A stretch of DNA of 64,000 nucleotides from positions 81,138-145,137 of the IMG/VR virus record IMGVR_UViG_3300023184_000037; one strand, 5' to 3'. Of the stretch, positions 8,401 to 44,078 are shown piece after piece. A program made the position numbers and the translations under genes. A model generated the notes under the pieces. It was not told where the DNA came from. It saw only the letters and a program-made list of their open reading frames with translations, and searched no databases. This DNA is from a virus. Every line of letters starts with the position of its first letter. Position 1 is the stretch's first letter.

Positions 8401-8676
8401 ATGAATATTTTAGACGAAGCAAGCGGAATTGTTAATAACCGCTCAGAAGAAGCAGACAGACAGTATGGTCCTTTCTCAGAAGGTATGGACAGAGCTGCAA
8501 TGATTTTTAGAGGTATGACCGGAATCGAAGTTACCGGAGAACACATGTTTAAAGCACTAGTTGCACTTAAATTCAGTAGAGAATCGTACAATCACAAGCG
8601 TGATAATTTATTAGATGCAGTTGCATATATCCAAGGATTAGACAACTACATTAACGAAAAGCAAAACAATGGTTAA
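8401..8676 (+). CDS. DUF6378-like small helical protein (nucleotide-modification associated)
   Basis: ILDEA..IV..R...YG....LK.SRE...HKRDN..D...Y pattern. Confidence 0.65.
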   Translation: MNILDEASGIVNNRSEEADRQYGPFSEGMDRAAMIFRGMTGIEVTGEHMFKALVALKFSRESYNHKRDNLLDAVAYIQGLDNYINEKQNNG

Positions 8677-9718
8677 TATTTACACAGTTTTAGATTCATT
8701 AAAGGGTAAGAAGATTGCAATTGATGATGTTGTAACTACTTATAGTTCAAAGAAGGCCAGCCATAAAAGTGCATGGGCTTTCTTATTAGCTAATCAATTA
8801 AGGTCCCTAGGACTGGATGCTGAAGTACTTACCAAGTCAGAAGATATTCACCAATATGATGTTTGGTTAGTAGCACTTCCAATGGAATTCCAAGGTTCTT
8901 ATAACCTATTTGGTGGAGCCACTGACGAACCAGCAGAAAGGATTAAAAGATTTTTAGATTTTGGTGGAACAATATATTGTTTGAATCGAGAAATGCCAGA
9001 TGTTGGAGCATTCGCGCAAAGTCGAATGAAATCATGTTCACCCTTATGGGCATCTCTTAATGTTGAAGCACTTACAAAGAAGAGTAAAGAAACCGAAACA
9101 ATTGAATTGAAATTGGCTTCCGGAACTTTTGTCTTAGGTGATTCCCATTCAGTTTCAGTATACCAACCGGGCGCAAATATTAGCCGAAATGATGGTAAAA
9201 CCCTATTTGGAGTTATGAAAGAGGGAATGACATCTTATATTCCTGAAGGAACTGACCATCTAATTACATACTTTGGAAACATTGATGTTCGTCATCACTT
9301 ATGCCGACAAGAAAAACCAGTCGACGCGGTTAAAGCCCTTGTAAAAAATTACTTTGAGCACTTACAATCACTAGGAATTCAAAAGAATACCGTTGTAAAA
9401 TTATTGCCTATCGAATTTGAAGGTCGCAGAATTCCAAAAACTGGGTACTATAAAGGTACTCCATTTATCGGAACTCAACGAGAACGCACTCAATTGATGG
9501 AAATATTTAACGAAGAGGTTGACAAACTCTCGGCTATATATAATATGAACGTAATCGAATGGCCGATTCATTGGTACTCAGCAGACCCACAATATTTTGC
9601 CGATACTTACATGGAGAAACCAGGTTCCGTTCACCTATCTAGAGAGTTTTACCAATATGATTTCGAGACGTCCGAAAAAAATGTTGTGCTAAAGAAAACT
9701 ATTAACACTCTTTTTTAA
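8669..9718 (+). CDS. Hybrid protein: beta-glucosyltransferase-like N-terminal domain plus SGNH-hydrolase-like domain
   Basis: KIAI...YDVWLV...SYNLFGG...IYCL; GDSH, GNID, SVHL; C-terminal INTLF. Confidence 0.5.
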   Translation: MVNIYTVLDSLKGKKIAIDDVVTTYSSKKASHKSAWAFLLANQLRSLGLDAEVLTKSEDIHQYDVWLVALPMEFQGSYNLFGGATDEPAERIKRFLDFGGTIYCLNREMPDVGAFAQSRMKSCSPLWASLNVEALTKKSKETETIELKLASGTFVLGDSHSVSVYQPGANISRNDGKTLFGVMKEGMTSYIPEGTDHLITYFGNIDVRHHLCRQEKPVDAVKALVKNYFEHLQSLGIQKNTVVKLLPIEFEGRRIPKTGYYKGTPFIGTQRERTQLMEIFNEEVDKLSAIYNMNVIEWPIHWYSADPQYFADTYMEKPGSVHLSREFYQYDFETSEKNVVLKKTINTLF

Positions 9719-9729
9719 AACAAAATAAT

Positions 9730-10314
9730 ATGAAAAACATTTTTTTAGATTGTGGAACCCATCTATGTGAAGGGTTACTAGAATTTCAGGCTAAAGGAGT
9801 TATTGATGATACATTTGAGATTCATACCTTTGAGGCAAATCCTGAATGTAAAATAGAAGAACGTGTAAAGAAAATACCCTTAAATATTACTCCACATAAT
9901 GTGGCAGTATGGATTGAGGACGGATTCGTATTGTTTAACCAAGAAAATCATAAAAAGAGTAATTGCGGTTCCCCGACTGATGGACAATCCGATATAGATG
10001 GATGGGCATCTTCGATTAATGGAATAGGATTTTACTGGCCAGGATATGAGACCCATGTCCAAGTTCCAAGTATTGATTTTAGCAAGTTTGTTTCTGAGCT
10101 ACCCAAAGATTCAAACATAATATGTAAAATGGATATTGAAGGTTCTGAATTCTCAGTCCTAAGAAAGATGATAGAAGAGGGTACAATTAGTAACATAAAG
10201 GAAATCTATATTGAGTTCCATGAAAGAGCTATGCCATCTGAATCTGTTGAATCCCGTCAAAAAATAGTTAATGACATTACAAACCTAGGTGTAGTAGTAC
10301 ATGAATGGTTTTAA
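9730..10314 (+). CDS. FkbM-family SAM-dependent methyltransferase
   Basis: FLDCGTH, FEANP, KMDIEGSE, IEFH. Confidence 0.85.
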   Translation: MKNIFLDCGTHLCEGLLEFQAKGVIDDTFEIHTFEANPECKIEERVKKIPLNITPHNVAVWIEDGFVLFNQENHKKSNCGSPTDGQSDIDGWASSINGIGFYWPGYETHVQVPSIDFSKFVSELPKDSNIICKMDIEGSEFSVLRKMIEEGTISNIKEIYIEFHERAMPSESVESRQKIVNDITNLGVVVHEWF

Positions 10315-10370
10315 TTTGAAACTTTTTAAATAAAACTAGTATAAAAATTATAAATTAAATTTTAAGAAAA

Positions 10371-11558
10371 ATGAACAAAATTAAAGTAGGAATTATCGGA
10401 ACAGGAAATTGCGCTAAATCATTAGTTGAAGGTGTACAATATTACACTGAAAATCCAAATGATATTACCGGAATGATGAAGTCCGATATTGGAGGTTACA
10501 AAGCAGAAAACATCGAGTTTGTATGTGGATTCGAAATTGATGAACGTAAAGTTAATCAAACATTAGGATACGCTCTTAAACAAAGACCAAACTCTGCATG
10601 GGATATTGTTGACGTAATTCATTCTGAGGCTCCAGTTTATGAGGCTCCAGTTATTGATGGTTATGCAGCCCTTATGGATAACTATCCAGAACAAAATCGT
10701 TTCTTAGTTGACGAAAAACTAAGAAATTCTACGGACATGAATCGTACTGATTGGACTCCAAAAAAATCACGTGAATGGAAAGACTCAATCATTGCTAAAT
10801 TAAAAGAGCATGGTGTTGAAGTACTTATTAACTACTTACCAGTAGGTTCACAAAAAACAACTGAATTCTGGGCTGAAATTTGCCTTGAAACAGGAATCTC
10901 TTTAGTAAACTGTATTCCAGTTTTTATCGCATCTGACCCAGCTTGGGAGCAAAGATTTATCGATGCTGGAATTCCAATTATCGGAGATGATATGCGTTCT
11001 CAATTTGGAGCAAGTATCCTTTCTCAAATGTTACAAGAACTTGCCTTTGAAAGAGGACATCATGTAAAAGCGCACATCCAAAGAAATGTTGGAGGTAACA
11101 CAGATTTCTTAAACATGGAAGACAAATCTCGTCTAGCATCTAAAAAGATTTCTAAAGAAAACGTAATTCGTGCCCAAAACGAAATTAGAGGAATCTCAAC
11201 TGAAGATTCATTCTTACACGCTGGTCCTTCTGAGTATATTGCATTTTATGGCGATAACAAAGTTGCTAACTTCCGTTTAGAACTTACAGGATTCGGTGGA
11301 GCACCAGTTCTTTTTGATGCTCAATTAAGTGTACAAGACTCTCCAAACTCAGCTGGAGTAGTAATCGATGCAGTTCGTTATTTAAGAGTTGCAAGAGAAT
11401 TAGGAGTTGTAGGAGCATTAAGAGGTCCTTCAGCGTTTACTCAAAAAACCCCACCAGATCAAATGATGTTTGCTGATGCTGTTTATGAGTGTACTGAATT
11501 GGCTGCAAGACGCTTAACAGATTCTACAAGAAAACAGTTAGTTGCTAAAAAAGCCTAA
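10371..11558 (+). CDS. ino1: Myo-inositol-1-phosphate synthase
   Basis: GTGNCAKSLVEG, NYLPVGS, GDDMRSQFGA, GGNTDFLNM, SKKISK, DSPNSAG. Confidence 0.95.
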   Translation: MNKIKVGIIGTGNCAKSLVEGVQYYTENPNDITGMMKSDIGGYKAENIEFVCGFEIDERKVNQTLGYALKQRPNSAWDIVDVIHSEAPVYEAPVIDGYAALMDNYPEQNRFLVDEKLRNSTDMNRTDWTPKKSREWKDSIIAKLKEHGVEVLINYLPVGSQKTTEFWAEICLETGISLVNCIPVFIASDPAWEQRFIDAGIPIIGDDMRSQFGASILSQMLQELAFERGHHVKAHIQRNVGGNTDFLNMEDKSRLASKKISKENVIRAQNEIRGISTEDSFLHAGPSEYIAFYGDNKVANFRLELTGFGGAPVLFDAQLSVQDSPNSAGVVIDAVRYLRVARELGVVGALRGPSAFTQKTPPDQMMFADAVYECTELAARRLTDSTRKQLVAKKA

Positions 11559-11573
11559 CAATCCAATTAACCC

Positions 11574-11603
11574 AAAGGGGAGAGAATAACTCTCCCTTTT
11601 TTT
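11574..11603 (+). terminator. Intrinsic terminator
   Basis: GGGAGAG/CTCTCCC hairpin plus T run. Confidence 0.7.
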
Positions 11604-11618
11604 ATCAAAACTTTACGC

Positions 11619-12017
11619 ATGTTAAACATATTTAAAACCAAAAAACCAGTCGATATCTATGGATACGATTTTGATGGAGTAATTTCAATTGGAATAACTC
11701 CAAGAGCAACCACAGATTTTGTTATTACCGGAAGATGTATTGACGAACAAGACGAAATCCGTGCAATCCTTAAAGAGAGAGGAATTAAATGCAAAGTGTA
11801 TTTTAATCCAATGACTCTTGAAGAACGTGGAAACCATACAGTTGCAGCTAGAAGGCATTCTGGAAATCACAAAGCAAAAACCCTTAATCGTTTAAAAGAT
11901 GAAGGTGTTATTGTTTCACGTTTTTTTGAAGATGACCCAATCCAATACCAAATTATCCAGGAAAACTGTCCTGATGTTGAATTGGTTAACATTGTATCAA
12001 AATTAGTACAGAAATAA
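11619..12017 (+). CDS. Capless HAD-superfamily phosphatase
   Basis: Motif I DFDGV, II ITGR, III K (NHKA), IV FEDD. Confidence 0.85.
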   Translation: MLNIFKTKKPVDIYGYDFDGVISIGITPRATTDFVITGRCIDEQDEIRAILKERGIKCKVYFNPMTLEERGNHTVAARRHSGNHKAKTLNRLKDEGVIVSRFFEDDPIQYQIIQENCPDVELVNIVSKLVQK

Positions 12018-12018
12018 G

Positions 12019-12720
12019 ATGAGTAGGGTTAAACTTCCTGAGTTTCCAATTTCTAAGTTAGAAAAAACTCGTCTTAAAAAGAAATACGTAAAAATATTGG
12101 GTGCAACCGAAGGTGTTGACGATAGTATGATTGGCGAAAGTATTGCTAATTACTTAATTCCTGAAATTGATTATAGGGGAATGGTTTGCCTTGACCTTGG
12201 AGCCAACATTGGAGCTTTTACTCAAATTGCGCTGGATGCCGGAGCAAGTAAAGTTTGTACTGTTGAATGCGATGCCAGAAACTTTGCAAAACTCGAGTCA
12301 ACTTATAAAAATGATGATTACGTTGATTTGGTTTATGCTGCCGTTTCCGGATTGCCTAATAAAACCTTAAAAATATTTAAGTCTGCTAGTCAAAACGCAC
12401 ATTGCTCAACATCAATTGAGAGCAAAATGAAGTTCAGCGAATATGATGAGGTCGAAAACATACACCTAAAAAAGTTACTAAAGAAATACAACCCAGATAT
12501 TATCAAGATTGATATTGAATCTGCCGAGTATACCCTAATCGATACTTTATTAGATTATGAACCTAAATATTTATTTATTGAATTACACGCAGGAAAACAT
12601 AGGGCTGAAATGTATCAAGTACTGGAAAGATTAGAGTCGATTTATCCGCATTCAAGAGTGGTTCCATTGATTATATTTACCGACAATTTGATAGCGCACG
12701 ACTGCTTCTTTAAAAAATAA
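12019..12720 (+). CDS. FkbM-family SAM-dependent methyltransferase
   Basis: LDLGANIGAF, VECD, KIDIESAE, IELH. Confidence 0.85.
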   Translation: MSRVKLPEFPISKLEKTRLKKKYVKILGATEGVDDSMIGESIANYLIPEIDYRGMVCLDLGANIGAFTQIALDAGASKVCTVECDARNFAKLESTYKNDDYVDLVYAAVSGLPNKTLKIFKSASQNAHCSTSIESKMKFSEYDEVENIHLKKLLKKYNPDIIKIDIESAEYTLIDTLLDYEPKYLFIELHAGKHRAEMYQVLERLESIYPHSRVVPLIIFTDNLIAHDCFFKK

Positions 12721-12728
12721 AATATAAA

Positions 12729-13916
12729 ATGACTTCAAATAAACAACTGCTTGAGATGGATTCTCAAGCACTGTTGGATTTAATACCAACAGAAAAAAGA
12801 CAATTGATCCGAGATTTTGTTCATGAAATGAATCGAAGAGAATATGAGGTTCGTTTTGCAAAAACATGTACCTTTGATACTTTTAGACACAGAGAGGGTA
12901 CTGGAGAGAACATCTTTGGCCATGGATTTATAGTAGAGGGACGTTCAGTTCCATACTTCCACCCAAACCGTTCATTCCACGATGAGATTATTTGGTTAAA
13001 TGAAAATGTGTTCTACAATCCAGAATGTACTTTTGAAGACCGATTAATTAATGCAGCAATTGTAAAGTTCTATGGTCCGTCGAATACAATTAGTCTATTA
13101 ACACACGACACTGGATTTCCATTCGTTAAATATGACCGATTGGTTAACGACGAGAAGTACGTTCTGCAGTGTATGGTTAATATGGAGAATGCAAGAAGGC
13201 GTGGTGAAAAGATTTATGGTACTACAGAATTACGAACAAGTCTACAGACCGAATCGAGAAATCATGCAAGGGTTCTTAAAACTCCTTATGATGTATTAAT
13301 TGGTGCCGAACCGGATCCAACCAGACAGAGTCGAACAAGTGATATGTTTTTTTGGTTTACCCTACTAGGTCCACGTTTTGCAGAATTCTATGCCAAAAAA
13401 CCGACGATGGAAGAGTCGTTTAACTTTTTAACATCACATCGAGGAATTGGAAACTATTATGGTTACCATTTTAGTACCAACCTTGCCCGAATGCCAGAAA
13501 TCGGAACGCCAGACCTATTGCGACCAGGCAGCCTATCTGGAAATCTTAACGAAGACGATGACTTTGTTGCACCTGGAGTTGGAGCGATGACCACAATCAA
13601 CTGGTTCTATGAACACTTAGGTTTTTCAATCTCGTCAGAAGTAGGAGCCAAGGTTATCAGACAAATCAGGGACACTCAACATGAATTCTTTGATTTTACT
13701 GGAGAAAATCTTGACTATTTAGAAACAATCACTGAGACCGGAAGATTTACAACGTTTGGTACAGAAATTAGTTGTTGTCAGTTTGGTGTATTTTTACGAT
13801 TGAGAGATAGTAAAAAGATGGCCCTAAACCGAGCAAATGCTCCAATTTCTAAAGAACAAATTGGTGAATCATGCGAAGTAGATGAACCAACATTTAAAAG
13901 TTCATGTTTATTTTAA
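12729..13916 (+). CDS. aGPT-Pplase1 / amino acid:DNA transferase-like base hypermodification enzyme (HhH-glycosylase fold)
   Basis: GIGNYYGYH..NL, EDDDFVAPGVGA and terminal EISCCQF match the GxG.F...D..ENDF..PGPGA...E..LCE(F/Y) pattern; C-terminal SCLF. Confidence 0.7.
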   Translation: MTSNKQLLEMDSQALLDLIPTEKRQLIRDFVHEMNRREYEVRFAKTCTFDTFRHREGTGENIFGHGFIVEGRSVPYFHPNRSFHDEIIWLNENVFYNPECTFEDRLINAAIVKFYGPSNTISLLTHDTGFPFVKYDRLVNDEKYVLQCMVNMENARRRGEKIYGTTELRTSLQTESRNHARVLKTPYDVLIGAEPDPTRQSRTSDMFFWFTLLGPRFAEFYAKKPTMEESFNFLTSHRGIGNYYGYHFSTNLARMPEIGTPDLLRPGSLSGNLNEDDDFVAPGVGAMTTINWFYEHLGFSISSEVGAKVIRQIRDTQHEFFDFTGENLDYLETITETGRFTTFGTEISCCQFGVFLRLRDSKKMALNRANAPISKEQIGESCEVDEPTFKSSCLF

Positions 13917-13958
13917 ACAAGTTCAAAATTACCTATAAAACTATTATATAAAAAACTT

Positions 13959-14426
13959 ATGGCAAATATAGACAATCAATGTAAAGACCTGGAAGTTAAA
14001 GACTTCTATTCAGATTCGACCACCCACCTGGCGGATATTATGGAAAACCAAAAGAAAATGCAGGAGCAGACTTATGGCTTTAATTTTGAAAATATGTCAA
14101 TTAGAGAAATTATGAACTTCTGGCATGTTAATACACATGCAGTAGTTGATGAAATTCACGAGATGACAGATGCCCTTGGAGGTATTAAAGATGGTAGTGG
14201 AAATGCAGTTTGGAAATACTGGAAAAAAGACTTTTCAAAGTATGAAACTATGAAAATTAGCGATCTATCTGAAGAGGACAAAAAAGAACTTTATATGGAA
14301 TGGGTAGACATACTACACTTCTTTATAAATTATGCGTCTTCAATCGGATTAGATGCAAAAACAGCTTACAATTATTACTTCGCGAAAGCAGAAGAAAATG
14401 TCGCAAGACAACAACGAGGGTATTAA
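13959..14426 (+). CDS. Dimeric all-alpha dUTPase/dCTPase (T4 gp56-like)
   Basis: DEIHE, WKYWK, EWVDILHF, KAEENVARQQRGY. Confidence 0.85.
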   Translation: MANIDNQCKDLEVKDFYSDSTTHLADIMENQKKMQEQTYGFNFENMSIREIMNFWHVNTHAVVDEIHEMTDALGGIKDGSGNAVWKYWKKDFSKYETMKISDLSEEDKKELYMEWVDILHFFINYASSIGLDAKTAYNYYFAKAEENVARQQRGY

Positions 14427-14469: not shown

Positions 14470-15339
14470 ATGAAAGCATTTATATATCAATGGACTAATA
14501 ATCTAAACGGAAAGAAATACATCGGATCACACATTGGAGAGCCTGAAGACGGTTATGCCGGTTCAGGCTCTTATTTTAAGAAAGCATTTAATAAATATAA
14601 AGATTTTTTTACTAGAGAAATTTTAGAAACTATAGATGGAGAAAATGTCTATGATAGAATTAAAATACTCGAAGAATCATATTTACAAAAAGTAGATGCT
14701 GCTAATAATTCCAATTATTATAATATCACAAATTCATATTATGGCGGTAATGTATATCAAGGGTTATCAATAGATGATAAAAAGAAAATGATAGAAGGTC
14801 GGACCAATGCCGCAAAAAATGATAGATTAAAAAATCCTCAAAAATATGAAGACATTGCTAAAAAGAAAAGTGCAATTCAAAGAGAAAAAGGTAAAGACGT
14901 TTATCAATTTACAAAAGATGGACAATTTATTGCAAAATATTCATGTTTAGAAGAAGCACATAAAATAACTAATATATCAAAAGGAAATTTACATTGCGCG
15001 CTTAATGCTAGCAGAAATTTTGCAAGTGGATTTAGATGGTCTTATAAAAATATACCAAATGATTTAATTCCACCTAAAAAACGTAATCATAAAAGTACTG
15101 GAAAGCAAAAGAATCCATCTAAACATATCAATATTATATATGTTCAAATAATTCAATGTGATTTAAAAGGAAATGAAATTCACACATGGAATAATAAAAA
15201 TGAAATTCAAGAACATTTAGGTATTAGTGCACAAATGATTAATCATGCGATAAATGGTAGAGGTAAAAATAATACCGGAGAATATAAAGGATTTATATGG
15301 AAAAAAGGTAAACAAATTAAAACGACAAAATATAATTAA
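14470..15339 (+). mobile_element. Free-standing GIY-YIG homing endonuclease (Seg-like) with NUMOD1 DNA-binding modules
   Basis: FIYQWTN..NGKKYIGSH, YAGSG, YYNI; VYQFTKDGQFI and IQCDLKGNEI modules. Confidence 0.9.
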
Positions 15340-15363: not shown

Positions 15364-16761
15364 ATGATTTTAGACATCGAACAGCGTGAAAAAGATGTTA
15401 TCATTTCATACTACAATGACAAAGGAGAAGTAGCATTCAAACAATACCCAGTGGATAAATTCCAAAATTGGTATGTTTGTGATGACAAAGACAAAGCGGC
15501 CAGTCCAGAGTATAAAAACTGGGATGGCCGTCCTGTTAAACTAGGATATGGAAAACAATTCAATAAGTTTTCCATTCTTTATTTTTTAGATAATCTTTCA
15601 GAGAAAGACAAAAAAGATTTAACAGCATATAATATGCCAAAAACTTATTTTGTCGATATTGAAACTGAAATTGTTGACGGCTTTCCAAAAGCCGAAGAGG
15701 CCAAAAGTAGAATTCTTTCATTCTCAATAATTACTCCAGACCGTAAAGCAATCGTTTTAGGTTTAGAGGATATGGCATCGGATAAAATCCAAAAGATTCA
15801 AGACGATACCAATGAGTACTTTAAAGATTTTGATATGGACTGGGAATTTAAGTACCATAAGTTTAAATCAGAGTATGACATGGTGTACACATTCTTAATG
15901 AAATTCTTACCAAAGTTTCCAATGATGACTGGATGGAATTTTATTAACTATGACTGGCAATATATTGTTAATCGATGCAAAAGACTTCAAATCGACATCA
16001 AAGAAATTGGTATGACAAATTCAATCGATCATACTGATGGCCGACCTCTTCATATCGGAATTCTTGACTACATGCAATTGTATGACAAATATGACCGAAC
16101 TGTAAAAGTTAAAGAATCCAACTCTTTGGATTATGTTTCTAGTCAAGTCTTGAACGTGAACAAAATCAAGTTCACTGGCTCACTACAGGACTTATACCGA
16201 GATAACTTTGTCAAGTACATATATTACAATGTGGTCGATTCAGTGCTTGTATACTACATTGACCAGAAGTTGAAGTCGATGGAGGTACTATTAACCTTGG
16301 CAAACATTACAAATATGCCATTGTATAAAGCAAGTTCTCCAGTGGCAGTTACTGAGGCGATTATGGCCAGAAAACTTGCCGAGCAAGGAATGCGAATTGG
16401 AAGCGAAGAGAAAAATGATAGTCAAAAAGATGGACAATATGCTGGAGCATTTGTAAAAGAACCAATCCTTGGATTCTATGAAGGTGTAAGTGCATTTGAC
16501 TTTGCGTCACTATATCCTTCGATCATGAGACAGTTCAATATATCTCCAGATGCATACATCGAAAAGATTTATAAAAGTGAAATTGAAGAACGTAGAAAAA
16601 ATAAAGAGGTTATTGTTTGTGATAATGGTGTAGTATATAAGACCGAAGATTCAATCTTAAGAAAAATATTAAGTGACCTATATGCGCAGCGTAAAGATTA
16701 TAAAAAAACTTCTTATGAATATTTCACAAAAGCTGACCGGTTGAAAAAACTGCTCCAATAA
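15364..16761 (+). CDS. gp43A: Family B DNA polymerase, N-terminal part (3'-5' exonuclease plus motif A)
   Basis: DIETE, GWNFINYD, YNVVD, YAGAFV, DFASLYPSIM; ends in the fingers domain. Confidence 0.9.
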   Translation: MILDIEQREKDVIISYYNDKGEVAFKQYPVDKFQNWYVCDDKDKAASPEYKNWDGRPVKLGYGKQFNKFSILYFLDNLSEKDKKDLTAYNMPKTYFVDIETEIVDGFPKAEEAKSRILSFSIITPDRKAIVLGLEDMASDKIQKIQDDTNEYFKDFDMDWEFKYHKFKSEYDMVYTFLMKFLPKFPMMTGWNFINYDWQYIVNRCKRLQIDIKEIGMTNSIDHTDGRPLHIGILDYMQLYDKYDRTVKVKESNSLDYVSSQVLNVNKIKFTGSLQDLYRDNFVKYIYYNVVDSVLVYYIDQKLKSMEVLLTLANITNMPLYKASSPVAVTEAIMARKLAEQGMRIGSEEKNDSQKDGQYAGAFVKEPILGFYEGVSAFDFASLYPSIMRQFNISPDAYIEKIYKSEIEERRKNKEVIVCDNGVVYKTEDSILRKILSDLYAQRKDYKKTSYEYFTKADRLKKLLQ

Positions 16762-16797: not shown

Positions 16798-17775
16798 ATG
16801 AGCAATATCTTCGAAAAACGAGTAAATATTTTACCCTACGAATACCCTTCTCTATTAGCATATAAAGACGCGATCCGACATTCATATTGGATTCACACAG
16901 AATTTAACTTCACAACAGATATTGATGACTTTATGACTAAAGTATCTGACGCAGAACGTGAAGTAATTAAAAGAGCGATGCTTGCGATTGCACAAATCGA
17001 AGTAAACGTTAAAACTTTTTGGGCAGACCTTTACAAAAGAATGCCGATCACTGAAATTGGAGATGTTGGTATGACATTTGCAGAGTCGGAAGTTAGACAC
17101 AAAGATGCTTACGCACAATTATTAAGAATCCTTGGATTAGAAGACGAATTCCAACATGTAGTAGAGATTCCAGCAATTAAAGATAGAATTGCATACTTGA
17201 CAAAGTATTTGGATGGTACAAGAAGTAAGGACAATAAAATGTATACGAAATCCGTATTGTTATTTTCATTGTTTATTGAGCATGTTAGTTTATTTAGTCA
17301 ATTCTTTATTATGATGTCTTTCAACAAGGAGAAAAACTTATTTAAAGGTATTTCGAATGTAGTTGAAGCAACGAGTAAAGAGGAGGAAATCCATGGAAAC
17401 TTCGGATCTGAATTGATTAACATTATTAAGAAAGAAAACCCAGACTGGTTTGATGAGGAATTCGAACAACTTATAGATTCTGCTTGTAAAAAAGCGTACC
17501 TAGCAGAGGTTAAAATTCTTGATTGGATTTTTGAAAAGGGTGAACTTGATTTCCTATCAAAAGAAACTATCAAACAATTTATTCAAAATCGTTTTAATAA
17601 TTCTCTACAACGAATTGGAATGAAACCCGTATTTGAAGTTGATTTTACAGAAATTGAAAAATCTTTATGGTTTGACGTTGAGATTCTTTCAACTAAAGAA
17701 GGTGATTTCTTCTACAAAAAATCGATTGACTACAACAAAAAGTCTAAGGCAATCACCGAAGACGACTTATTTTAA
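16798..17775 (+). CDS. nrdB: Ribonucleotide reductase class I beta subunit
   Basis: W..TE, ESEVRHKDAY, IEHVSLFSQF, EEEIH, DFF. Confidence 0.95.
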   Translation: MSNIFEKRVNILPYEYPSLLAYKDAIRHSYWIHTEFNFTTDIDDFMTKVSDAEREVIKRAMLAIAQIEVNVKTFWADLYKRMPITEIGDVGMTFAESEVRHKDAYAQLLRILGLEDEFQHVVEIPAIKDRIAYLTKYLDGTRSKDNKMYTKSVLLFSLFIEHVSLFSQFFIMMSFNKEKNLFKGISNVVEATSKEEEIHGNFGSELINIIKKENPDWFDEEFEQLIDSACKKAYLAEVKILDWIFEKGELDFLSKETIKQFIQNRFNNSLQRIGMKPVFEVDFTEIEKSLWFDVEILSTKEGDFFYKKSIDYNKKSKAITEDDLF

Positions 17776-19515: not shown

Positions 19516-19562
19516 ATGTTTAAAATCTAGAGATATATAAATAAAATAAAAATCTTTTGCAA

Positions 19563-20645
19563 ATGATTCCAATCAAGCTTTTCGAAGAATTCTTATACGA
19601 AGAAAATCTTAAAAACAAATATGCTAAGAAAGTGGCATGGATTATGAAGTCTCATGATATTCATGCAACTTCAGGCGATGTTAATGGTCGTGAAAAGAAA
19701 TACAATATTGCCGCTAAAGGTAACCTATTCTTGAACTATGCAACCAAAGAGGACTTTGAAGATGATAGCGTTGTAGTACCTGGAGATGTGCCAATACTTA
19801 ATTATGGCGGAGCAGTCGACCCAGAGGCGATCGGATTCTTAAAGAATAAAGGTATTAACAACGATAATCTATACAACAAGAGAGAATTACTTCCACTTTC
19901 AGGAGACAAGGTAAAATTTGCCAAAGCAGCCGCAAAATTTGATTGGCTTCCAAAGACATGTTTTTCAAAAGAGGACGCAATTAAAGGAGACGTCGGTTTT
20001 CCAGTAATTGCAAAAATAAAAGATGGACATAGCGGAGTTGGAATTCAAAAATTCGACACTGCCAAAGAACTTGAAGCGAGCAAAGATAAATTCGATATCT
20101 TTTGTCAATTTATAGATTTTGCTAGAGAATACAGAGTAATGTTCTGTAGAGACAAGATTTTTGTTATTAATGAAAGAGTTCCGAGAATTGAAGATGACCG
20201 TTCGATTAAAACAAAAACTGCCGATGAGAAAATCAGTTTTACTTATGTTTATCAAGACCAAAACAAGGTCGACCCTAAATTCATCGAAAATGTGTTATCA
20301 ATTTGTAAAGACGTTAAAACATTTTTAGACCTAGACTTATGGGCCCTAGATATTGTAGTAGACAAAAAAGGTAAAATGTGGATTATGGAAACATCATCTG
20401 CAACCGGACTTGGAAGCGTTAAAATGTGCGAAGTTTATAAGGCAATGTATGAAGATTTTTATGGAGAACCCTTAGATGACGAATTCTTAGAGGACATTTA
20501 CCTAAAATATGTAGTTCCTGGGCATCAGAATTACTACCCAAAATTTAAAAAAGAAATTGACTCTTCTCAGTGGCCAATGGACTATAAAATATTAACGGAT
20601 CCCAAAGCAAAAGATGGGTATAGATATTTTTTTAATTTAGATTAA
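19563..20645 (+). CDS. RimK-like ATP-grasp ligase with capsid-targeting-like N-terminus
   Basis: GDK, FPVIAK..GHSGVG, QFID..REYRV, ALDIV, IMETSS; MIPIKLFEEFLYE. Confidence 0.8.
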   Translation: MIPIKLFEEFLYEENLKNKYAKKVAWIMKSHDIHATSGDVNGREKKYNIAAKGNLFLNYATKEDFEDDSVVVPGDVPILNYGGAVDPEAIGFLKNKGINNDNLYNKRELLPLSGDKVKFAKAAAKFDWLPKTCFSKEDAIKGDVGFPVIAKIKDGHSGVGIQKFDTAKELEASKDKFDIFCQFIDFAREYRVMFCRDKIFVINERVPRIEDDRSIKTKTADEKISFTYVYQDQNKVDPKFIENVLSICKDVKTFLDLDLWALDIVVDKKGKMWIMETSSATGLGSVKMCEVYKAMYEDFYGEPLDDEFLEDIYLKYVVPGHQNYYPKFKKEIDSSQWPMDYKILTDPKAKDGYRYFFNLD

Positions 20646-20649
20646 TAAC

Positions 20650-21711: not shown

Positions 21712-21724
21712 AATAAAAAAAATT

Positions 21725-22057: not shown

Positions 22058-22077
22058 TAAAAATATTATTTAATAAG

Positions 22078-22303: not shown

Positions 22304-23059
22304 ATGAAAATTAAAATTGACAAAGTAGACCAAAACAATTTCATCGGTTTTGTGAATAGACTTAAGGTTATCGATACCTTCATCTACTTTAAAATCAAGG
22401 ATGAAGTGGTACAGGCATCCGCCTATCTTCCACAAAGAGATGCTGTTAAACATCACAGAGTTCCTGTGTCACAAGTATTCCAATTGGAAGATGGTGCTAT
22501 TAACACATCAAAAGAATTAAAAATTGCATTCTTTGATGCGGGTCGTTTAACTGACGCATTTAAACAATTTGAATTTGGAAATATCCAAGCTGAAATTGAA
22601 TTTGTAGAAAATGACGAGGATTTTGTAGCAACTGAATTCCGTATTTTCAACAACGAATTAGAGATTAAACTTGCGTGTTCCGAGCCTTCATTAGGTTATA
22701 AAGACCTTACAGATGCTCAAATTGCCGGAATCTTTAATATCGACGCAGCAAACTATGTATTTGACATGGACTATACTGCAACTTCAAAAGTTCGTTCTCT
22801 TTTTGGATTGGACAAAGAAGAAACTTTCACTATTGCAACTAACACTGAAGGTGTAAGAATGAAAGGTAAAACTTACAACTACCTCGTTACAGACTCATTC
22901 CAAGGTAACAATCCTGGCAATGTAACTCTTTTCAAAAAATATTTAAACCTTTTAGACAAAGAAGATTATTCAGCAAATGTTATGGATAACCGAGTAGTAT
23001 TGCGCTCAAAAGATTCAGAAACATTACTAACTATCGCTACTTGCCAAACTGCTGAATAA
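22304..23059 (+). CDS. Sliding clamp (gp45-like, putative)
   Basis: 251 aa, two beta-rich halves, directly upstream of the polymerase C-terminal gene; middle promoter. Confidence 0.6.
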   Translation: MKIKIDKVDQNNFIGFVNRLKVIDTFIYFKIKDEVVQASAYLPQRDAVKHHRVPVSQVFQLEDGAINTSKELKIAFFDAGRLTDAFKQFEFGNIQAEIEFVENDEDFVATEFRIFNNELEIKLACSEPSLGYKDLTDAQIAGIFNIDAANYVFDMDYTATSKVRSLFGLDKEETFTIATNTEGVRMKGKTYNYLVTDSFQGNNPGNVTLFKKYLNLLDKEDYSANVMDNRVVLRSKDSETLLTIATCQTAE

Positions 23060-23062: not shown

Positions 23063-24259
23063 ATGACAATCGACGAATTAATACTAAAACCAGAGAGTGA
23101 GTTATCACAGGATGAAATTAAAATCTTGGTTGAGCATTATTCTATGTTGTCAGCAAAGTTCGGTGCCTATGAGCAAGCAGTAAAAGTAATGCTTAACTCT
23201 ATTTATGGTGCCTTTGGAAACAAATGGTTTCACTTTTTTAATATAGACATCGCAGAATCTATCACCTTACAGGGACAGTCTGCGATTCTATATTCTGAAA
23301 AGATTCTAAACAAATATTTTCAAGAGTTTTGGAATAAAGACCGAGCAGTTCATGAGTTTTTTAACATTCAAGTTAAGAACAAATTGGTTCGACCATCAGT
23401 AGTTTATATTGATACAGATTCATGTTACGTACAGTTTGAAGAGATGTATGAATCTATTGAATGGCTTGGAGACAAGCTAACAATTGACCAATTCATTATG
23501 AAATTGTACAACTTCAGACTTAAAGATTATATTTTTAAGTGCATGGAGAAATATGCGGAAGCAACCAATACTGAAAACTTCCTCCAGTTTGAATTGGAAA
23601 CTATTGCATACTCTGGAATTTGGTTGGCTAAGAAAAAATACTTGCAGAATCTCGCATGGGACGATAAAATTGGAATTGATGACAGACACCCATCTCTTAA
23701 GAAGGTAAAAACTATCGGATTTGATACAATTCAAAGTTCAACTCCAGCTCTCGCAAGAAAGCAGTTGACGGAGATTCTTAAACTGATTCTTTCAGAAAAA
23801 CCTACCGCTTCTTTATTGAAGAGACTTGTAGATTATTTGAAACAATGTAAAAAAGAATTTCAATTAGCAAGTGTTGATGAGATATGTTTTAATAAAAGAA
23901 CAAACAATCTTGAAAAATATATCGTAGATGATACGGTAGAATTTCAATATGGTTTAAAATGTCCGCCAAACGTAAAAGCCGCAGGTTTCTATAATTTCTT
24001 AATGAATCAAAATCCAAAGTTTAAGAACAAATATAAGATGATTGGTAACGGTGAAAAACTGAAACTATATCACTGTAAACATGCAACTTGCGAGATATTT
24101 GCATACCAACCTGGAGCTCACCCTTATGAAATTGCACCGACAGTTGACTATGAAATGCAATTTGAAAAGAGTGTTATAGACCCATTGAACCGTGTTTTAA
24201 CCGCAGTTGGACTGCACACATTAAATAGAAACTTAATTTATTCAACCTCATTATTTTAA
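23063..24259 (+). CDS. gp43B: Family B DNA polymerase, C-terminal part (motifs B, C and thumb)
   Basis: KVMLNSIYGAFG, ITLQGQ, YIDTDS, AKKKY; C-terminal STSLF. Confidence 0.92.
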   Translation: MTIDELILKPESELSQDEIKILVEHYSMLSAKFGAYEQAVKVMLNSIYGAFGNKWFHFFNIDIAESITLQGQSAILYSEKILNKYFQEFWNKDRAVHEFFNIQVKNKLVRPSVVYIDTDSCYVQFEEMYESIEWLGDKLTIDQFIMKLYNFRLKDYIFKCMEKYAEATNTENFLQFELETIAYSGIWLAKKKYLQNLAWDDKIGIDDRHPSLKKVKTIGFDTIQSSTPALARKQLTEILKLILSEKPTASLLKRLVDYLKQCKKEFQLASVDEICFNKRTNNLEKYIVDDTVEFQYGLKCPPNVKAAGFYNFLMNQNPKFKNKYKMIGNGEKLKLYHCKHATCEIFAYQPGAHPYEIAPTVDYEMQFEKSVIDPLNRVLTAVGLHTLNRNLIYSTSLF

Positions 24260-27227: not shown

Positions 27228-27671
27228 ATGAGAACACAAAGAGATAAAATATTCGACAATACATTTGCTGAGAGTGAATTTGAATTAGACAGTTCATTTT
27301 CTTTCGATATTGCACCAAGCTACTTAGACAACCGTGACGAAGAGGATAAAATTGAAACGCAAATAATTATTACTAAAATCCACGAGTTAATTGAATCTTC
27401 TCGATTCAAACACTTTAATAACATCAATGAATTTAATGAGACTGTTAAATTAAAAAAGAATGAAATTAACGAAATCTATGAATTTATTTCAGATGAGCTC
27501 CGACCAAACCATTCAATCATTGAAGTATTTTCGGAATTGTGTGATTACTTTAATGTAAATCCAACAAAATTCTACCAGTCACTAGGAAACAAATTTAAAG
27601 AGGAGCTAATCGAGGTATTAGACAAGAAGACAAACGTACTAAAGAAAAAGCATATAAATAGATTATTCTAA
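27228..27671 (+). CDS. Putative late transcription coactivator (gp33-like)
   Basis: Acidic N-terminus, helical IIEVFSELCDYFNVNP...KEEL core, C-terminal INRLF. Confidence 0.5.
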   Translation: MRTQRDKIFDNTFAESEFELDSSFSFDIAPSYLDNRDEEDKIETQIIITKIHELIESSRFKHFNNINEFNETVKLKKNEINEIYEFISDELRPNHSIIEVFSELCDYFNVNPTKFYQSLGNKFKEELIEVLDKKTNVLKKKHINRLF

Positions 27672-34007: not shown

Positions 34008-35597
34008 ATGGCAGGATTTGTACAAAGAAATGGTCCATTGACTAAGCGACCGTTTAACCTAAGTAGTACCCTTAAGAAGTTATCTTCTTTTGGTATGTAC
34101 TACGACGATTTGGTTCTTAGACAATCTCAAGCAATTGGGCCAGTAGAAGATGAAATTGGTTACGGCCAAATGAACCCAACTGGGCTTGATAGTGATGACA
34201 TGTATGGCGCGTTTGCAGCCCTTTCGATGGCTGATACTACAATGCGTAAAAATATTCCATTCTTTGACCAAGCATATCGTGGTAAAAGAGACGAATTACG
34301 ATCATTTGCGCAGCATGATGAGATTGAAGACATATTAGATATACTTTGTGATGAATCGATAGTATATGACAGTAAAAACTTCATAGCAAATCCAGAGATT
34401 ATTGGAATGGAAGTTTCTGAAGATGTTCAAAAATATCTTAATAAAGCATATAGAGACCTTTACCAATATTTTGGATTTAACCTAGACCAATCAGCATGGT
34501 ACTTCTTTAGAAAATGGTTAATTGATGGTTATCTTGCATTTGAGATTATTTATAATCCTGAAATGACTGAAGTTATTGGATTTAAAGAAATTGACCCAAT
34601 CACATTAGTACCAGGTTATAACCATGAAGATGGTAAAAAAGTTTGGATTCAGTTTAAAGACGATCCAGTTAAACAAAGAAAATTGTATGATGCACAAATT
34701 GTGTACATATCATATTCTTCGATTACTACCGCATCAAGGGTTTCTTACCTTGAAAGACTTGTAAGAGCATTCAACTTAATGAGAATTATGGAGCATACCA
34801 GAGTTATTTGGGCTGTTACAAATTCATCTTATAGAATGAAATTTATTATACCAGTCGGTGGTAAATCTAAAACAAGAGCAAAACAATCGCTTGCTCAGTT
34901 AATGAATAACTATAAAGAAGTTGTTGATTTTGATTGGGATAGTGCATCCCTTACAACTAACGGTAAACCAATGTTACAATTTAACAAAGAATATTGGTTA
35001 CCTAGTAAAGACGGAGAGCAACCTGAGATTGAAACCCTTGGTGGTGATGGTCCAGAACTTAGTGACACAGAATCATTAAAATATTTCTCAGATAAACTTA
35101 AAGCAGTTTCAAAAATTCCTTACAATAGATTCATGTATGAAGATGGTGGAGGAGATTTCAATCTAGCAGCCGATGGTATGATTAGAGATGAGATTAAATT
35201 TGCTAAGTTCATTAATCGTTTACGTAGTTCATTCCAAGAGATATTGATTAAACCATTATGGCTTCAAATGTGTCTTAAATTTCCAGAATTTAAAGAGGAC
35301 GCAGGATTTAGAACTCAAATTGCATTGAGATTTAACGAAGATAATATGTTCGCTGAATTAAAGACAATGGAAATTATGCAAAAGAGACTTGAGTTTATTG
35401 GTTCAATGAAAGACTCGTTATCTACAACAAATCCAGTAACTATGGAAGAAACTCCATACTTTGACCTTGAATTCTTGGTTGATAGATACCTTAAACTTTC
35501 TCCAGATGATAAAGCAGCTAATGATGCTTATAAAGCCCGAAATGATGCTAAAAAAGCAGCCGAACCGGAAGAGGAAAATCCAATGATGGGAATGTAA
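34008..35597 (+). CDS. gp20: Portal protein
   Basis: FRKWLIDG, SYLER, YWLP, IETLGG, SKIP..R, RDEIKFAKFI.RLR. Confidence 0.93.
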   Translation: MAGFVQRNGPLTKRPFNLSSTLKKLSSFGMYYDDLVLRQSQAIGPVEDEIGYGQMNPTGLDSDDMYGAFAALSMADTTMRKNIPFFDQAYRGKRDELRSFAQHDEIEDILDILCDESIVYDSKNFIANPEIIGMEVSEDVQKYLNKAYRDLYQYFGFNLDQSAWYFFRKWLIDGYLAFEIIYNPEMTEVIGFKEIDPITLVPGYNHEDGKKVWIQFKDDPVKQRKLYDAQIVYISYSSITTASRVSYLERLVRAFNLMRIMEHTRVIWAVTNSSYRMKFIIPVGGKSKTRAKQSLAQLMNNYKEVVDFDWDSASLTTNGKPMLQFNKEYWLPSKDGEQPEIETLGGDGPELSDTESLKYFSDKLKAVSKIPYNRFMYEDGGGDFNLAADGMIRDEIKFAKFINRLRSSFQEILIKPLWLQMCLKFPEFKEDAGFRTQIALRFNEDNMFAELKTMEIMQKRLEFIGSMKDSLSTTNPVTMEETPYFDLEFLVDRYLKLSPDDKAANDAYKARNDAKKAAEPEEENPMMGM

Positions 35598-39946: not shown

Positions 39947-39983
39947 GTGATATATAATCTATCAAACAAAATACATTAAAATT

Positions 39984-41762: not shown

Positions 41763-41826
41763 ACAATATTTATCTGAAACTTATAGGTACTGTCTTATAT
41801 AATACTTATAAACTTAAACCTAAAAA

Positions 41827-42777
41827 ATGATTCAAGCACTTTTTACAGAAAAATATCGTCCAAAGAATTTAGAAGATTTAATCCTTCCAGAACGTGTAAT
41901 GTCGAAATTTGAAAATGGATTAACACAGAATATGTTATTAGCAGGTAGCCCAGGAACTGGTAAAACTTCAACTGCAAAGGCAATTGTTAACCAATTTGGA
42001 TTACCATATCTTTATATCAATGCATCTACAGATACTTCAGTTGATGTAATCAGAACCCGAATCACTGACTTCTGTTCAACGATGTCAATCCTAGATGACC
42101 AAGGAAAATTTAAAGTGGTAATATTAGATGAGGTTGATGGTGTATCTGACCAATTCTTTAAAGCACTTCGTGCAACGATGGAGCAGTTTGCAAGTAACTC
42201 AAGATTTATTGCAACTTGTAATTACGTTAATAAAATTCCAGACCCAATCCTTTCCCGTTTTGAAGTTATTAATTTTGACTTTGATAAATCAGAAGAGAAT
42301 GAATTGACTAAGAAATATATTAGACGTGTTTATGAAATCTGTGGAAAAGAGGGAATGACAATTGAAAAACCAGCCCTTGTAGAATTTGTTAAAAGAAACT
42401 TTCCAGACCTTCGAAGCACTCTTAATAAATTGCAAGGTTACAAAACACAAGGTACTCAAAATATTACACTCGATGACGTTAAGAAATTTAACTCAGTGTA
42501 CAAGGATATGTTTGACCTGATTTTTAATCAAATGGACCCTGTAACAAACTACAAGTATATTGTAGGTGAATATTCAAATAGAGTTGATGATGTCTTACAG
42601 ACACTTGGCCAAGAATTTATCGAATACATACAAACAGAAAAACCACAAAACGCTCGACACATTCCGCAAATTGCAATTTGTGTTGCAGAACACCAAGCAC
42701 AAAGAACCTTGGTAATCGACCCGGTTATTACGTTACTTTCATGTACGTATAAAATACAAGAAATTGTAAGAAATTAA
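41827..42777 (+). CDS. gp44: Clamp loader AAA+ subunit
   Basis: EKYRP, GSPGTGKTS, INAS, LDEVD, ILSRF. Confidence 0.93.
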   Translation: MIQALFTEKYRPKNLEDLILPERVMSKFENGLTQNMLLAGSPGTGKTSTAKAIVNQFGLPYLYINASTDTSVDVIRTRITDFCSTMSILDDQGKFKVVILDEVDGVSDQFFKALRATMEQFASNSRFIATCNYVNKIPDPILSRFEVINFDFDKSEENELTKKYIRRVYEICGKEGMTIEKPALVEFVKRNFPDLRSTLNKLQGYKTQGTQNITLDDVKKFNSVYKDMFDLIFNQMDPVTNYKYIVGEYSNRVDDVLQTLGQEFIEYIQTEKPQNARHIPQIAICVAEHQAQRTLVIDPVITLLSCTYKIQEIVRN

Positions 42778-42845
42778 AAAATAAATTGATAAAAGTTTTT
42801 CCGTGTCAAAACTTTTTATTATATTTACAAATAAATTATAGAACT

Positions 42846-44078
42846 ATGAAACTAGGAAAACATACACTTATTATCGATGGAAATTATTTTGTACATAGCA
42901 GACTTTTTGTACTTCCACGTCCTAAAAAAGAACAATTACTAGGAGACAGAGATGGCCAAGAGCAATTCATGCGTAAATTATGTATTGACTTTGCATCTGA
43001 AGTCAGAAAAATGACCCCTTTTGTCGATCAAATCGTAGTTGCAGTCGATTCAAAATCATGGCGTAAAGACCTATTTCCAACCGCAGAATATAAAGGTACT
43101 AGAGTTGCTGATAATTCAGTTAATTGGGAAAATGTATTTAATGTTTATACAGAGTTCCAAGATATTCTTGCAAAGCAGGGTGTTATTATACATAAAGTTC
43201 CTGGTGCCGAAGCAGACGATATTCTTTTTGGTTGGTCAACGCAATTAAACAATGAAGGTAAAAATTGTATTGTTTGGACTGGTGACCGTGACCTTATTCA
43301 ATTGGTTAATTATAATGAAGCCACTGATGCATACACCCTATGGTACTACAATTCTAAACGTAAATTACTAGCATTTGAAGGTTTTGAAACCCTTATTAAT
43401 AAACCTAATGAGGTAGAAATTTCTAATGATGACTTGTTATTTAACATGGGTTCTACTGATGTATTAAATAGCCAACTAAAAGGTGATTTCATCAACTGGA
43501 TTGCTAAAAATGGTGTAGAAATAGAAGAGATTAATTGTGATGATTTTATCTTCTCAAAAATCTTACAAGGTGACAAGAGCGATAACATTCAATCTGTAGT
43601 TTCATGGACTAAAAGAACTAGCACAGGTTCTATCCGAAACTATTCAATCACTGAAAAGCAGGCAATTCAAATCCTAGAAAAATATCGTGAAATTGAAGGT
43701 AACTTCCACATTGACCATTTCTTTTCAGAAGCACAGGTTAAAACTATAGTTGACATGATTCATGAAGTTGTTGGTAAATCTACAATTGATGAAATCCGTT
43801 TGCGATTTAACCAAAATCTTGACTTAATGTTATTGCACTATAACACAATACCTGGTGGCATACAAAAAGCAATATATAATGAAATTGAGAAAGATTTTAC
43901 AGTTGAAACACGATTGACCGGATTAACTCAGATGGAAAAGATATTAGAAGGAACCCAGTGGAATTCTAAAGCGGCTTCCGGAAGTGGAGCTCCTAAGAGT
44001 TTTGACCCATTTGCAACTCTTCAACTTGACAAAGTTTCTCAACAACCTGAAACTAAAAAAATAAACACATTATTTTAA
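42846..44078 (+). CDS. rnh: RNase H / 5'-3' flap exonuclease
   Basis: IIDGN, YKGTR, EADD, TGDRDL, GDKSDNI; C-terminal INTLF; TATATTTAC at 42820. Confidence 0.9.
   Translation: MKLGKHTLIIDGNYFVHSRLFVLPRPKKEQLLGDRDGQEQFMRKLCIDFASEVRKMTPFVDQIVVAVDSKSWRKDLFPTAEYKGTRVADNSVNWENVFNVYTEFQDILAKQGVIIHKVPGAEADDILFGWSTQLNNEGKNCIVWTGDRDLIQLVNYNEATDAYTLWYYNSKRKLLAFEGFETLINKPNEVEISNDDLLFNMGSTDVLNSQLKGDFINWIAKNGVEIEEINCDDFIFSKILQGDKSDNIQSVVSWTKRTSTGSIRNYSITEKQAIQILEKYREIEGNFHIDHFFSEAQVKTIVDMIHEVVGKSTIDEIRLRFNQNLDLMLLHYNTIPGGIQKAIYNEIEKDFTVETRLTGLTQMEKILEGTQWNSKAASGSGAPKSFDPFATLQLDKVSQQPETKKINTLF

Follow-up and report, generated by a model that had tools for sequence, protein, structure and literature searches.

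The final 64 kb of a contig from a large, uncultured relative of T4, IMG/VR IMGVR_UViG_3300023184_000037 (positions 81,138 to 145,137 of 145,137 bp), here called the window, encode a PCNA-fold sliding clamp, the C-terminal part of a family-B DNA polymerase and a flap endonuclease, as well as 2 putative DNA-modifying enzymes, which we refer to as enzyme A and enzyme B. The polymerase, the endonuclease and both enzymes end in the dipeptide Leu-Phe (LF), preceded by a small residue. It is likely that [small residue]-L-F represents the clamp-interaction peptide of this phage clade and that it has been adopted by modification enzymes that act on DNA. The clamp-docking reading is well supported, although the support is indirect.

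LF C-termini are enriched among DNA-transaction proteins

The replication gene set is that of the T4 family, with a split family-B polymerase, UvsX, a DnaB-like helicase, SbcCD, and a gp44-like clamp loader. Open reading frames (ORFs) come from a mechanical call that took the longest frames without overlap. An LF C-terminus was found in 8 of the 173 ORFs on the contig, against 0.67 expected from the composition (binomial P = 4.7e-7), which made it the most frequent terminal dipeptide, and none of the internal dipeptides reached a count of 8 in 2000 resamplings. The 8 carriers were:

8669..9718, plus strand: enzyme A, with an N-terminal alpha/beta domain, an SGNH/GDSL-fold domain (residues ~148 to 338), a linker of ~12 residues and the tail ..KKTINTLF (codons at 9695-9715; phrog_13881; N-terminal half of phrog_17781)
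12729..13916, plus strand: enzyme B, a stand-alone HMUDK_hel-domain protein of 395 amino acids with the tail ..FKSSCLF (codons at 13893-13913; PF18723, score 32.1 bits with the cut-off at 25 bits, E = 1e-07; C-terminal half of phrog_17781, 3.5e-86)
16798..17775, plus strand: small subunit of ribonucleotide reductase (RNR-beta), tail ..TEDDLF (PF00268, 3.2e-57)
23063..24259, plus strand: C-terminal part of DNA polymerase B (PolB-C), tail ..NLIYSTSLF (PF00136, 1.5e-18; phrog_1918, 7e-71)
27228..27671, plus strand: p147, a small acidic protein encoded between the DnaB-like helicase and SbcD, tail ..KKKHINRLF
42786..44078, plus strand: 5'-3' exonuclease or flap endonuclease (FEN) of the T4 RNase H type, with ..ETKKINTLF after a low-complexity linker (PF02739, 1.5e-16; phrog_107)
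21551-22183 of the genome, outside the window: RNase HII, tail GSLF (PF01351, 2.7e-35)
71516-71734 of the genome, outside the window: p72, an ORF of 72 amino acids flanked by the genes for the primase and for a UvsW-like helicase, tail NSLF

The first-pass annotation had listed 5 of these proteins, all of which were present (8669-9718, 12729-13916, 23063-24259, 27228-27671, and 42786-44078), and had interpreted their ending as a clamp-binding motif; the genome-wide count was in line with that claim. The terminal LF core of its motif, (I/S/T)-x-x-L-F, also held up. The residue at position -5 (I/S/T) was not generally conserved, and a sixth carrier in the window, RNR-beta, had been overlooked, along with 2 carriers elsewhere on the contig.

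The LF ends were not only strongly over-represented but also confined to proteins of DNA transactions, and no structural protein was among the 8 carriers. PolB, FEN, and RNase HII are canonical clamp clients, while p147 and p72 are both encoded within replication gene blocks. The core shared by the tails was [small residue]-L-F at the carboxyl end, and 3 proteins contained the longer version K-x-I-N-x-L-F.

No Pfam or PHROG family was found for p147. It had been described as gp33-like, a label that could not be maintained: a search with PF16805, which recovers gp33 in T4, in Aeromonas phage 31 and in the T4-type relative G001, returned nothing in this genome at E values up to 10, and hhalign gave the p147 profile a probability of 0.3 against T4 gp33. 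The only lead was a weak Atlas feature (0.79). No homolog of gp33 or gp55 with an LF tail was identified.

An acidic C-terminus with a final aromatic residue is the R1-binding peptide of class I RNR-beta. The RNR-beta examined here has the small-subunit fold and such a tail. Sibling phages have another RNR-beta type, unrelated to the first (30% identity), whose tail is DEDDLF(S) or DEDELF. Its LF is therefore probably the known R1-binding peptide rather than a clamp tail, and RNR-beta was set aside.

The tails are conserved at the level of the peptide

The conservation set consisted of 80 related viral loci with clamp identities of 61% to 100%; several of the related contigs are fragments. The PolB-C tail LIYS[TSA]SLF was retained in all of the 79 related loci (69% to 97% identity), and the PolB-C proteins of the huge phages LR756500 and LR756504 kept SLF at 50% and 31% identity, respectively. 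The p147 tail K-x-I-N-[KR]-L-F was found in 67 of 68 loci down to an identity of 59%, with a single IGRLF variant. Both tails are essentially fixed at identities of 59% to 99%, whereas the C-termini of UvsX, SbcD, and the N-terminal part of the polymerase (PolB-N) drift freely across the related loci.

In the distant siblings G015 and G013, LF was retained by RNase HII, p72, PolB-C, and p147. The FEN protein carried LF in G015 and G014 (its gene is not on the G013 contig), and FEN orthologs at 66% and 60% identity ended in LNELF and TIKLF. An exact LF end was also present in 87 of the 120 best homologs of enzyme A, as anticipated if the tails are kept in homologs; the most distant of these proteins stop at the domain core and have no appendage. 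The tails of enzyme B homologs end in LF within this clade and are of the T4 type elsewhere.

The terminal codons varied between genes and orthologs, with TTA, CTT, TTG, and CTA for Leu, TTT and TTC for Phe, and TAA, TGA, and TAG as stops. Since Leu-Phe stays while its codons change synonymously, selection acts on the peptide and not on a signal in the DNA. The tails are carried by the polymerase and other known clients and are conserved above the neighboring sequence by selection at the protein level. They are also located at the extreme C-terminus, outside of the folded domains. In the AlphaFold2 (AF2) model of enzyme A, which has an overall pLDDT of 91, the last 6 residues (344-349) have a pLDDT below 50, and the FEN tail follows a low-complexity linker. 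The end of enzyme A, modeled as disordered, thus looks like a short linear motif carried by a flexible tail.

It was also noted that the DnaB-like helicase (25912-27225) has a C-terminal peptide of its own, ..[ST]NSNIH[SN][LI], in all of 68 related loci, which may represent a second tail code, for example for binding of the primase or the loader.

The window encodes a PCNA-fold clamp and its loader

22304..23059, plus strand: sliding clamp of 251 amino acids with the two-domain fold of PCNA and gp45, the proposed docking hub (AF2 model, Foldseek)
41827..42777, plus strand: large subunit of the clamp loader, a gp44/RFC-like AAA+ protein (Pfam AAA, 4.5e-21; Gp44_lid, 2.2e-12; phrog_168 clamp loader, 8.8e-75)

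The clamp had no matches in Pfam or PHROG and could thus not be assigned to a sequence family; an exhaustive profile search identified 167 relatives among metagenomic representatives. The assignment, already implied in the first-pass annotation, is supported by the fold. The AF2 model, built on an alignment of 78 sequences, has a pLDDT of 96 and a pTM of 0.91 and consists of 2 topologically repeated beta-alpha-beta-beta-beta domains. The top Foldseek matches in PDB were all PCNAs (probability 1.0, TM 0.62-0.70), and the matches included the complexes 1rxm and 3p83, with PCNA bound to peptides of FEN-1 and RNase HII. The clamp gene is located immediately upstream of the gene for PolB-C, and the gene for the gp44-type loader immediately upstream of the FEN gene. 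The cognate clamp and its loader are thus both encoded alongside the LF proteins.

The tails of the enzymes follow the polymerase tail in other lineages

The strongest indirect test of the clamp reading is provided by lineages in which the polymerase ends in a different motif, of which there are about 5, not all independent of each other:

G001 (complete, 173.6 kb, unsplit polymerase, 30% identity): polymerase ATLDDWF; enzyme A SASLDSFF; enzyme B SSSLENFLA
G003: polymerase ATLDDWF; enzyme B SSLESFFG
G010: polymerase STLEGFFS; enzyme B SSLINFFH
Aeromonas phage 31: gp43B NLFDMFDI; gp33 NTLDFLM; fused enzymes A and B CSLDGLFAI
G020 (LF clade): polymerase ALW; enzymes A and B and a TAGT glycosyltransferase all LF

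For comparison, T4 gp55 ends in SLDFLYEAND and T4 gp33 in NTLDFLL. Tails of the form [ST]L[DE]x[FW][FL] were found only in relatives from T4-type lineages. Among the 284 ORFs of G001, the only proteins of more than 100 amino acids with this end were the polymerase and the homologs of enzymes A and B, and looser patterns added only an ORF of 40 and an ORF of 78 amino acids. The genes for the A and B homologs are adjacent in G001, beside a homolog of myo-inositol-1-phosphate synthase (MIPS). A lineage in which enzyme A ends in LF[LF]D[VI]T.. (G004, G005) is represented by contigs that do not contain PolB-C and could not be used for this comparison.

A long form of enzyme B (480-570 amino acids; P0134-P0168; loci L122, L123, L129, and L200) has an extra C-terminal domain of ~100-170 residues ending in ..K(D/E)xK.YRR. 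This domain replaces the hydrophobic tail in phages with sizes of 185-293 kb whose enzyme A is tail-less too, and it may provide an alternative way to reach the DNA. The sole contig of one tail-less enzyme A lineage (P0108) carries the tail-less enzyme A, the long-form enzyme B and MIPS together; no relatives of this lineage were found in the viral contig collection.

Unrelated modifiers in a hypervariable island end in LF

8401..8676, plus strand: DUF6378 gene, left border of the island (PF19905, 1.2e-08)
13959..14426, plus strand: MazG/dUTPase-like nucleoside triphosphate pyrophosphohydrolase, no LF, right border of the island (phrog_173, 8e-14)
15364..16761, plus strand: PolB-N, with the exonuclease and the start of the polymerase domain, no LF (PF03104, PF00136)

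The genes for enzymes A and B are located in an island with the order DUF6378, cassette, MazG, and PolB-N (8401-14426), which is hypervariable among siblings with 56% to 99% identical replication genes. The DUF6378 gene is kept beside each alternative cassette in G011, G015, G013, G020, and G004, and MazG is kept to the right of each cassette. The cassettes compared (loci L187:15244-16467, L025:2608-3705, and L115:4119-5003) were:

G000 and G011: the cluster from enzyme A to enzyme B, with LF on both enzymes
G015: an alpha-glucosyltransferase (alpha-GT), tail ..LKTDSLF (PF11440, 3e-18; phrog_2888, 9e-67; 26% identity to the alpha-GT of T4/T6)
G013 and relatives: a phrog_14998 protein of 365 amino acids, tail ..KQNSLF
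G020: the cluster from enzyme A to enzyme B and a TAGT glycosyltransferase (PF20691, 3.8e-9), tail ..KKLF

The LF tail of the alpha-GT in G015 is placed on an extension of ~50 residues and is kept in 33 loci. The 365-amino-acid protein of G013 has no Pfam family, and a relationship to enzyme A was rejected (hhalign probability 0.4). In total, 5 unrelated families of modifiers carry the LF tail: the SGNH fusion, HMUDK_hel, alpha-GT, TAGT, and phrog_14998. The tail is never present on the enzymes of the same clusters that are predicted to act on small molecules, namely MIPS, the HAD/PNK-like protein, the FkbM methyltransferases, and MazG.

Enzymes A and B and the putative modification cluster

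The SGNH half of enzyme A, described in the first-pass annotation as a hybrid of beta-glucosyltransferase and SGNH, was borne out by structure comparison (Foldseek probability 1.0; VIA Z ~12 over ~165 residues) and by the sequence GDSH at residues 157-160, corresponding to the GDS motif of block I, which was invariant in 74 sequences. The Pfam GDSL match was below the cut-off (17.6 versus 23.6 bits). The match lists of both fold searches were filled by the SGNH domain, and a search of the enzyme A profile against PDB sequences gave only spurious matches to uS15.

Enzyme B had been called aGPT-like, a label that was not supported: its only match is to HMUDK_hel, and no aGPT-Pplase family was listed at E values up to 10, a search in which the HMMER filters drop weak matches. 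The Walker A motif [AG]x4GK[ST] is absent from all of its 395 amino acids, and no kinase family was found at E values up to 10. A stretch with the pattern E-x-x-C-C (TEISCCQFG) is reminiscent of the conserved Cys and Glu residues of aGPT-Pplase clade 2 (PMC8989533), as an unaligned resemblance.

The 2 enzymes are fused into a single protein of 795 amino acids in Aeromonas phages 31 and 44RR2.8t (phrog_17781), from which we conclude that they work together. In phage 31, the fused protein is ORF233c (L085:4900-7287), a hypothetical protein ending in ..CSLDGLFAI; both of these phages also have a split gp43. Phages 44RR, 31, and 25 contain homologs of dCMP-hydroxymethylase and dCTPase but no glucosyltransferase (Petrov et al., PMC2993671), and the fused protein would be a candidate for their missing decorating enzyme.

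Located between the genes for enzymes A and B are those for the MIPS homolog (10371-11558; PF01658, 1.2e-22; phrog_33138, 2e-146), a small HAD/PNK-like protein and 2 FkbM methyltransferases. MIPS accompanies enzymes A and B in at least 4 distant lineages (including G001 with 57% identity, G020 with 82%, and L200), which hints at an inositol-derived group on the DNA or on a donor molecule. A gene of the thymidylate synthase family is located elsewhere on the contig, and its homolog adjoins the gene for enzyme A in phage G004.

How the tails may function and which alternatives remain

The interpretation of LF as the clamp motif, as put forward in the first-pass annotation, is supported by the excess of LF ends, the conserved tails, the PCNA-fold clamp, the co-variation with the polymerase, the convergent glycosyltransferases and the tail-free small-molecule enzymes. 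In the mechanism that we propose, the gp44-like loader would place the clamp on DNA, and the flexible C-terminal [small]-Leu-Phe, or its extended form K-x-I-N-x-L-F, would insert into the hydrophobic pocket between the domains of the clamp. PolB-C, FEN, and RNase HII would employ the LF peptide in the manner of their counterparts in T4, archaea, and eukaryotes. The island enzymes that act on the DNA polymer, enzymes A and B here and alpha-GT, TAGT, and phrog_14998 in the siblings, would have acquired the same peptide, so that clamps located at the fork, or behind it, would carry the modifiers along to decorate DNA that has just been synthesized. The first-pass annotation placed both enzymes at the fork, which could equally mean clamps left behind on newly made DNA. 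The chemistry would probably be the decoration of a hydroxymethyl-pyrimidine. We infer all 3 components, the clamp as the partner, the co-replicative timing and the chemistry.

Several observations weigh against this interpretation. Neither (S/T)LDFL nor Qxx[ILM]xx[FY][FY], the canonical consensus sequences, is matched by the tails, which are shorter and consist of [small]-L-F or K-x-I-N-x-L-F. The gp33 homolog of G001 does not have the motif found on the polymerase and enzyme tails of that phage. In G004, whose contig does not include PolB-C, enzyme A ends in ..LFFDITGSV and FEN in ..DSDIFSMMS. RNR-beta carries LF and is not a clamp client, so that LF ends can have other causes. No clamp peptide was seen when T4 alpha-GT itself was inspected, and a preprint from 2025, in which C-terminally His-tagged enzymes were used, found no interaction of alpha-GT or beta-GT with gp45 (bioRxiv 10.64898/2025.12.06.692756).

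The comparative data identify a peptide that is shared and under selection on DNA-transaction proteins but do not give the identity of its receptor. LF could therefore dock on another shared hub of the replisome. If this hub were, for example, the polymerase itself, the replicative helicase or the protein that binds single strands, the tie to replication would stay and the clamp would not be involved. The conserved tail of the helicase, NSNIH[SN]L, indicates that there is more than one tail code in the replisome. However, the polymerase is homologous to gp43 of the T4 family, in which the C-terminal tail is the clamp-binding peptide, and the FEN and RNase HII proteins of archaea and eukaryotes dock on PCNA by C-terminal peptides, 2 such complexes (1rxm and 3p83) being among the fold matches of the clamp. 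Moreover, the enzyme tails in the T4-type lineages match the motif of gp33, gp55, and gp43. We consider another hub unlikely.

Less probable still, and in our opinion improbable, is that the tail, instead of docking, serves early or middle proteins as a signal for stability, turnover or localization, for example as a degron at the C-terminus or as a tag for sorting. Short hydrophobic C-termini can serve as signals for proteases or chaperones, and the phage encodes a GroEL-like chaperonin (34008-35597). However, a turnover or sorting signal is not expected to track the clamp tail of the polymerase across lineages with different motifs, and it would not pick out the DNA-acting enzymes of a single operon-like island while skipping the small-molecule enzymes interspersed among them.

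That the shared ending is a coincidence, reflects a biased composition or arises as a side effect of a signal in the DNA that overlaps gene ends (TTATTTTAA) is effectively refuted: the genome is AT-rich (34% GC), TTA and TTT are its commonest Leu and Phe codons and 5 of the 8 LF genes end in TTA TTT TAA, yet the binomial test and the resamplings exclude chance, LF persists in phages of different composition and at 31% polymerase identity, and a DNA-level cause is ruled out by the other genes and orthologs that keep Leu-Phe with CTT, TTG, or CTA, with TTC, and with TGA or TAG.

Comparison with known systems

The C-terminal clamp peptides of the T4-family polymerase, gp33, and gp55 are textbook knowledge, as are the PCNA-interacting peptide (PIP) boxes. 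The gp45-binding peptides of gp43, gp33, and gp55 in T4 and RB69 are of the (S/T)LDFL type, and a crystal structure of the RB69 clamp with a peptide has been reported. As in that system, the polymerase and other predicted clients of a phage-encoded clamp of the trimeric type share a flexible, hydrophobic or aromatic peptide at the extreme C-terminus, the polymerase is a gp43 homolog, and enzymes A and B of the T4-type relatives carry [ST]L[DE]x[FW][FL], like gp33 and gp55. In contrast to the T4 system, all that is left of the motif here is a carboxyl-terminal [S/T/G/C/N]-L-F, and the predicted clients include DNA-modifying enzymes and, via their C-termini, FEN and RNase HII. In T4, RNase H reportedly contacts the clamp through a different region.

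Clients of PCNA with a PIP box (Qxx[ILM]xx[FY][FY]), among them the FEN-1 and RNase HII proteins of archaea, resemble the proteins described here in that the clamp has the PCNA fold and the peptide is located at the C-termini of FEN and RNase HII. The sequence K-x-I-N-x-L-F reproduces the spacing of the hydrophobic positions 4, 7, and 8 of the PIP box. Unlike the PIP box, the tails do not have a glutamine at position 1 and most have only the last 2 hydrophobic residues; the resemblance is one of sequence spacing and does not indicate a 3-10 helix binding mode.

The eukaryotic maintenance DNA methyltransferase Dnmt1 is tethered to PCNA. It is likewise a DNA-modifying enzyme coupled to the replication clamp by a short peptide, as predicted here, but belongs to another domain of life and differs in enzyme family, motif position, and chemistry.

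For phages, an interaction of T4 alpha-GT with gp45 was reported in vitro in 2004 (as cited in bioRxiv 10.64898/2025.12.06.692756). This proposal also involves a DNA-modifying phage enzyme that rides on the sliding clamp, and the true alpha-GT homolog in G015 bears LF. Unlike T4 alpha-GT, which has no recognizable clamp peptide and for which the interaction is disputed, the tails described here are a dedicated and conserved appendage that is shared with the polymerase. The systems that employ 5-HMUDK as well as aGPT-Pplase (Lee et al. 2018, PMC5889632; 2021, PMC8989533) are similar in that enzyme B matches the helical domain of HMUDK (PF18723) and in the presence of a cluster for post-replicative base modification, but enzyme B has no P-loop kinase domain and no match to aGPT-Pplase. 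The clamp or the replisome is not mentioned in these 2 papers on thymidine hypermodification. A literature search for polymerase-type clamp tails on phage hypermodification enzymes identified no paper, and gave only the dispute about T4 alpha-GT and gp45.

Genome context and other features of the window

All long ORFs in the window are on the plus strand, and a gp23-type capsid protein is encoded on the contig. Near-identical relatives have sizes of up to ~236 kb with one gene repeated at both ends, which suggests that the genome is terminally redundant with a size of ~233 kb. The closest phages in the databases, LR756500 (462 kb) and LR756504 (636 kb), are huge and have not been cultured.

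Beside the split polymerase, the genes for MazG and PolB-N are separated by that for a homing endonuclease with a NUMOD1 domain (phrog_314; 14470-15339). Neither G015 nor the near-identical G011 has this endonuclease, which is thus a recent mobile insertion. Another variable insertion, with no equivalent at that position in G011 or G015, is located between the gene for the large RNR subunit and the clamp gene (19557-22057) and consists of an ATP-grasp gene, a gene of the alanine-dehydrogenase/PNT family and an ORF of 110 amino acids. The GroEL-like chaperonin (529 amino acids, ending in ..PMMGM) is followed by an ORF of 113 amino acids with an acidic tail (to 35960), and both are kept in G011, G015, and G020. 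A DUF2828/DUF7788 protein (TROVE/vWA-like; phrog_850 "RNA-binding protein") is encoded at 6507-7943 and is 50% identical to a homolog in the distant T4-type phage G001, which itself contains the cluster of A, B, and MIPS.

Implications for phage DNA modification

Hypermodification of phage DNA is known as a post-replicative process. This raises the question of how the modifiers reach fresh DNA fast enough to shield it from the nucleases of the host, and the sole link proposed so far, that of T4 alpha-GT with gp45, is now disputed. A polymerase-type tail on 5 unrelated families of modifiers, co-varying with the polymerase tail across lineages, offers a concrete mechanism, open to tests with peptides. 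In practice, an affinity tag at the C-terminus would hide an interaction of this kind. Aeromonas phages 31 and 44RR2.8t, which are in culture and have a fused enzyme with a T4-type tail and the genes of a hydroxymethyl-dCMP pathway without a glucosyltransferase, make the idea genetically testable. The LF tail may also help to recognize, from the sequence, new DNA-acting enzymes among uncharacterized phage genes.

A broader proposal, for which we consider the chances to be even, is that LF is a portable tag for acting on replicating DNA in this clade of phages of ~235 kb and larger, such that any enzyme that enters the island and acts on the DNA polymer acquires the clamp tail of the polymerase, whereas those that make the donor do not. 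If so, the sequence by itself would be enough to predict new families of DNA-modifying enzymes, in this case phrog_14998 and the SGNH fusion. Hypermodification of a hydroxymethyl-pyrimidine, possibly with a group derived from inositol, would then be coupled to the clamp and to replication as a general strategy, one that would also include phages of the T4 type, for example Aeromonas phages 31 and 44RR2.8t.

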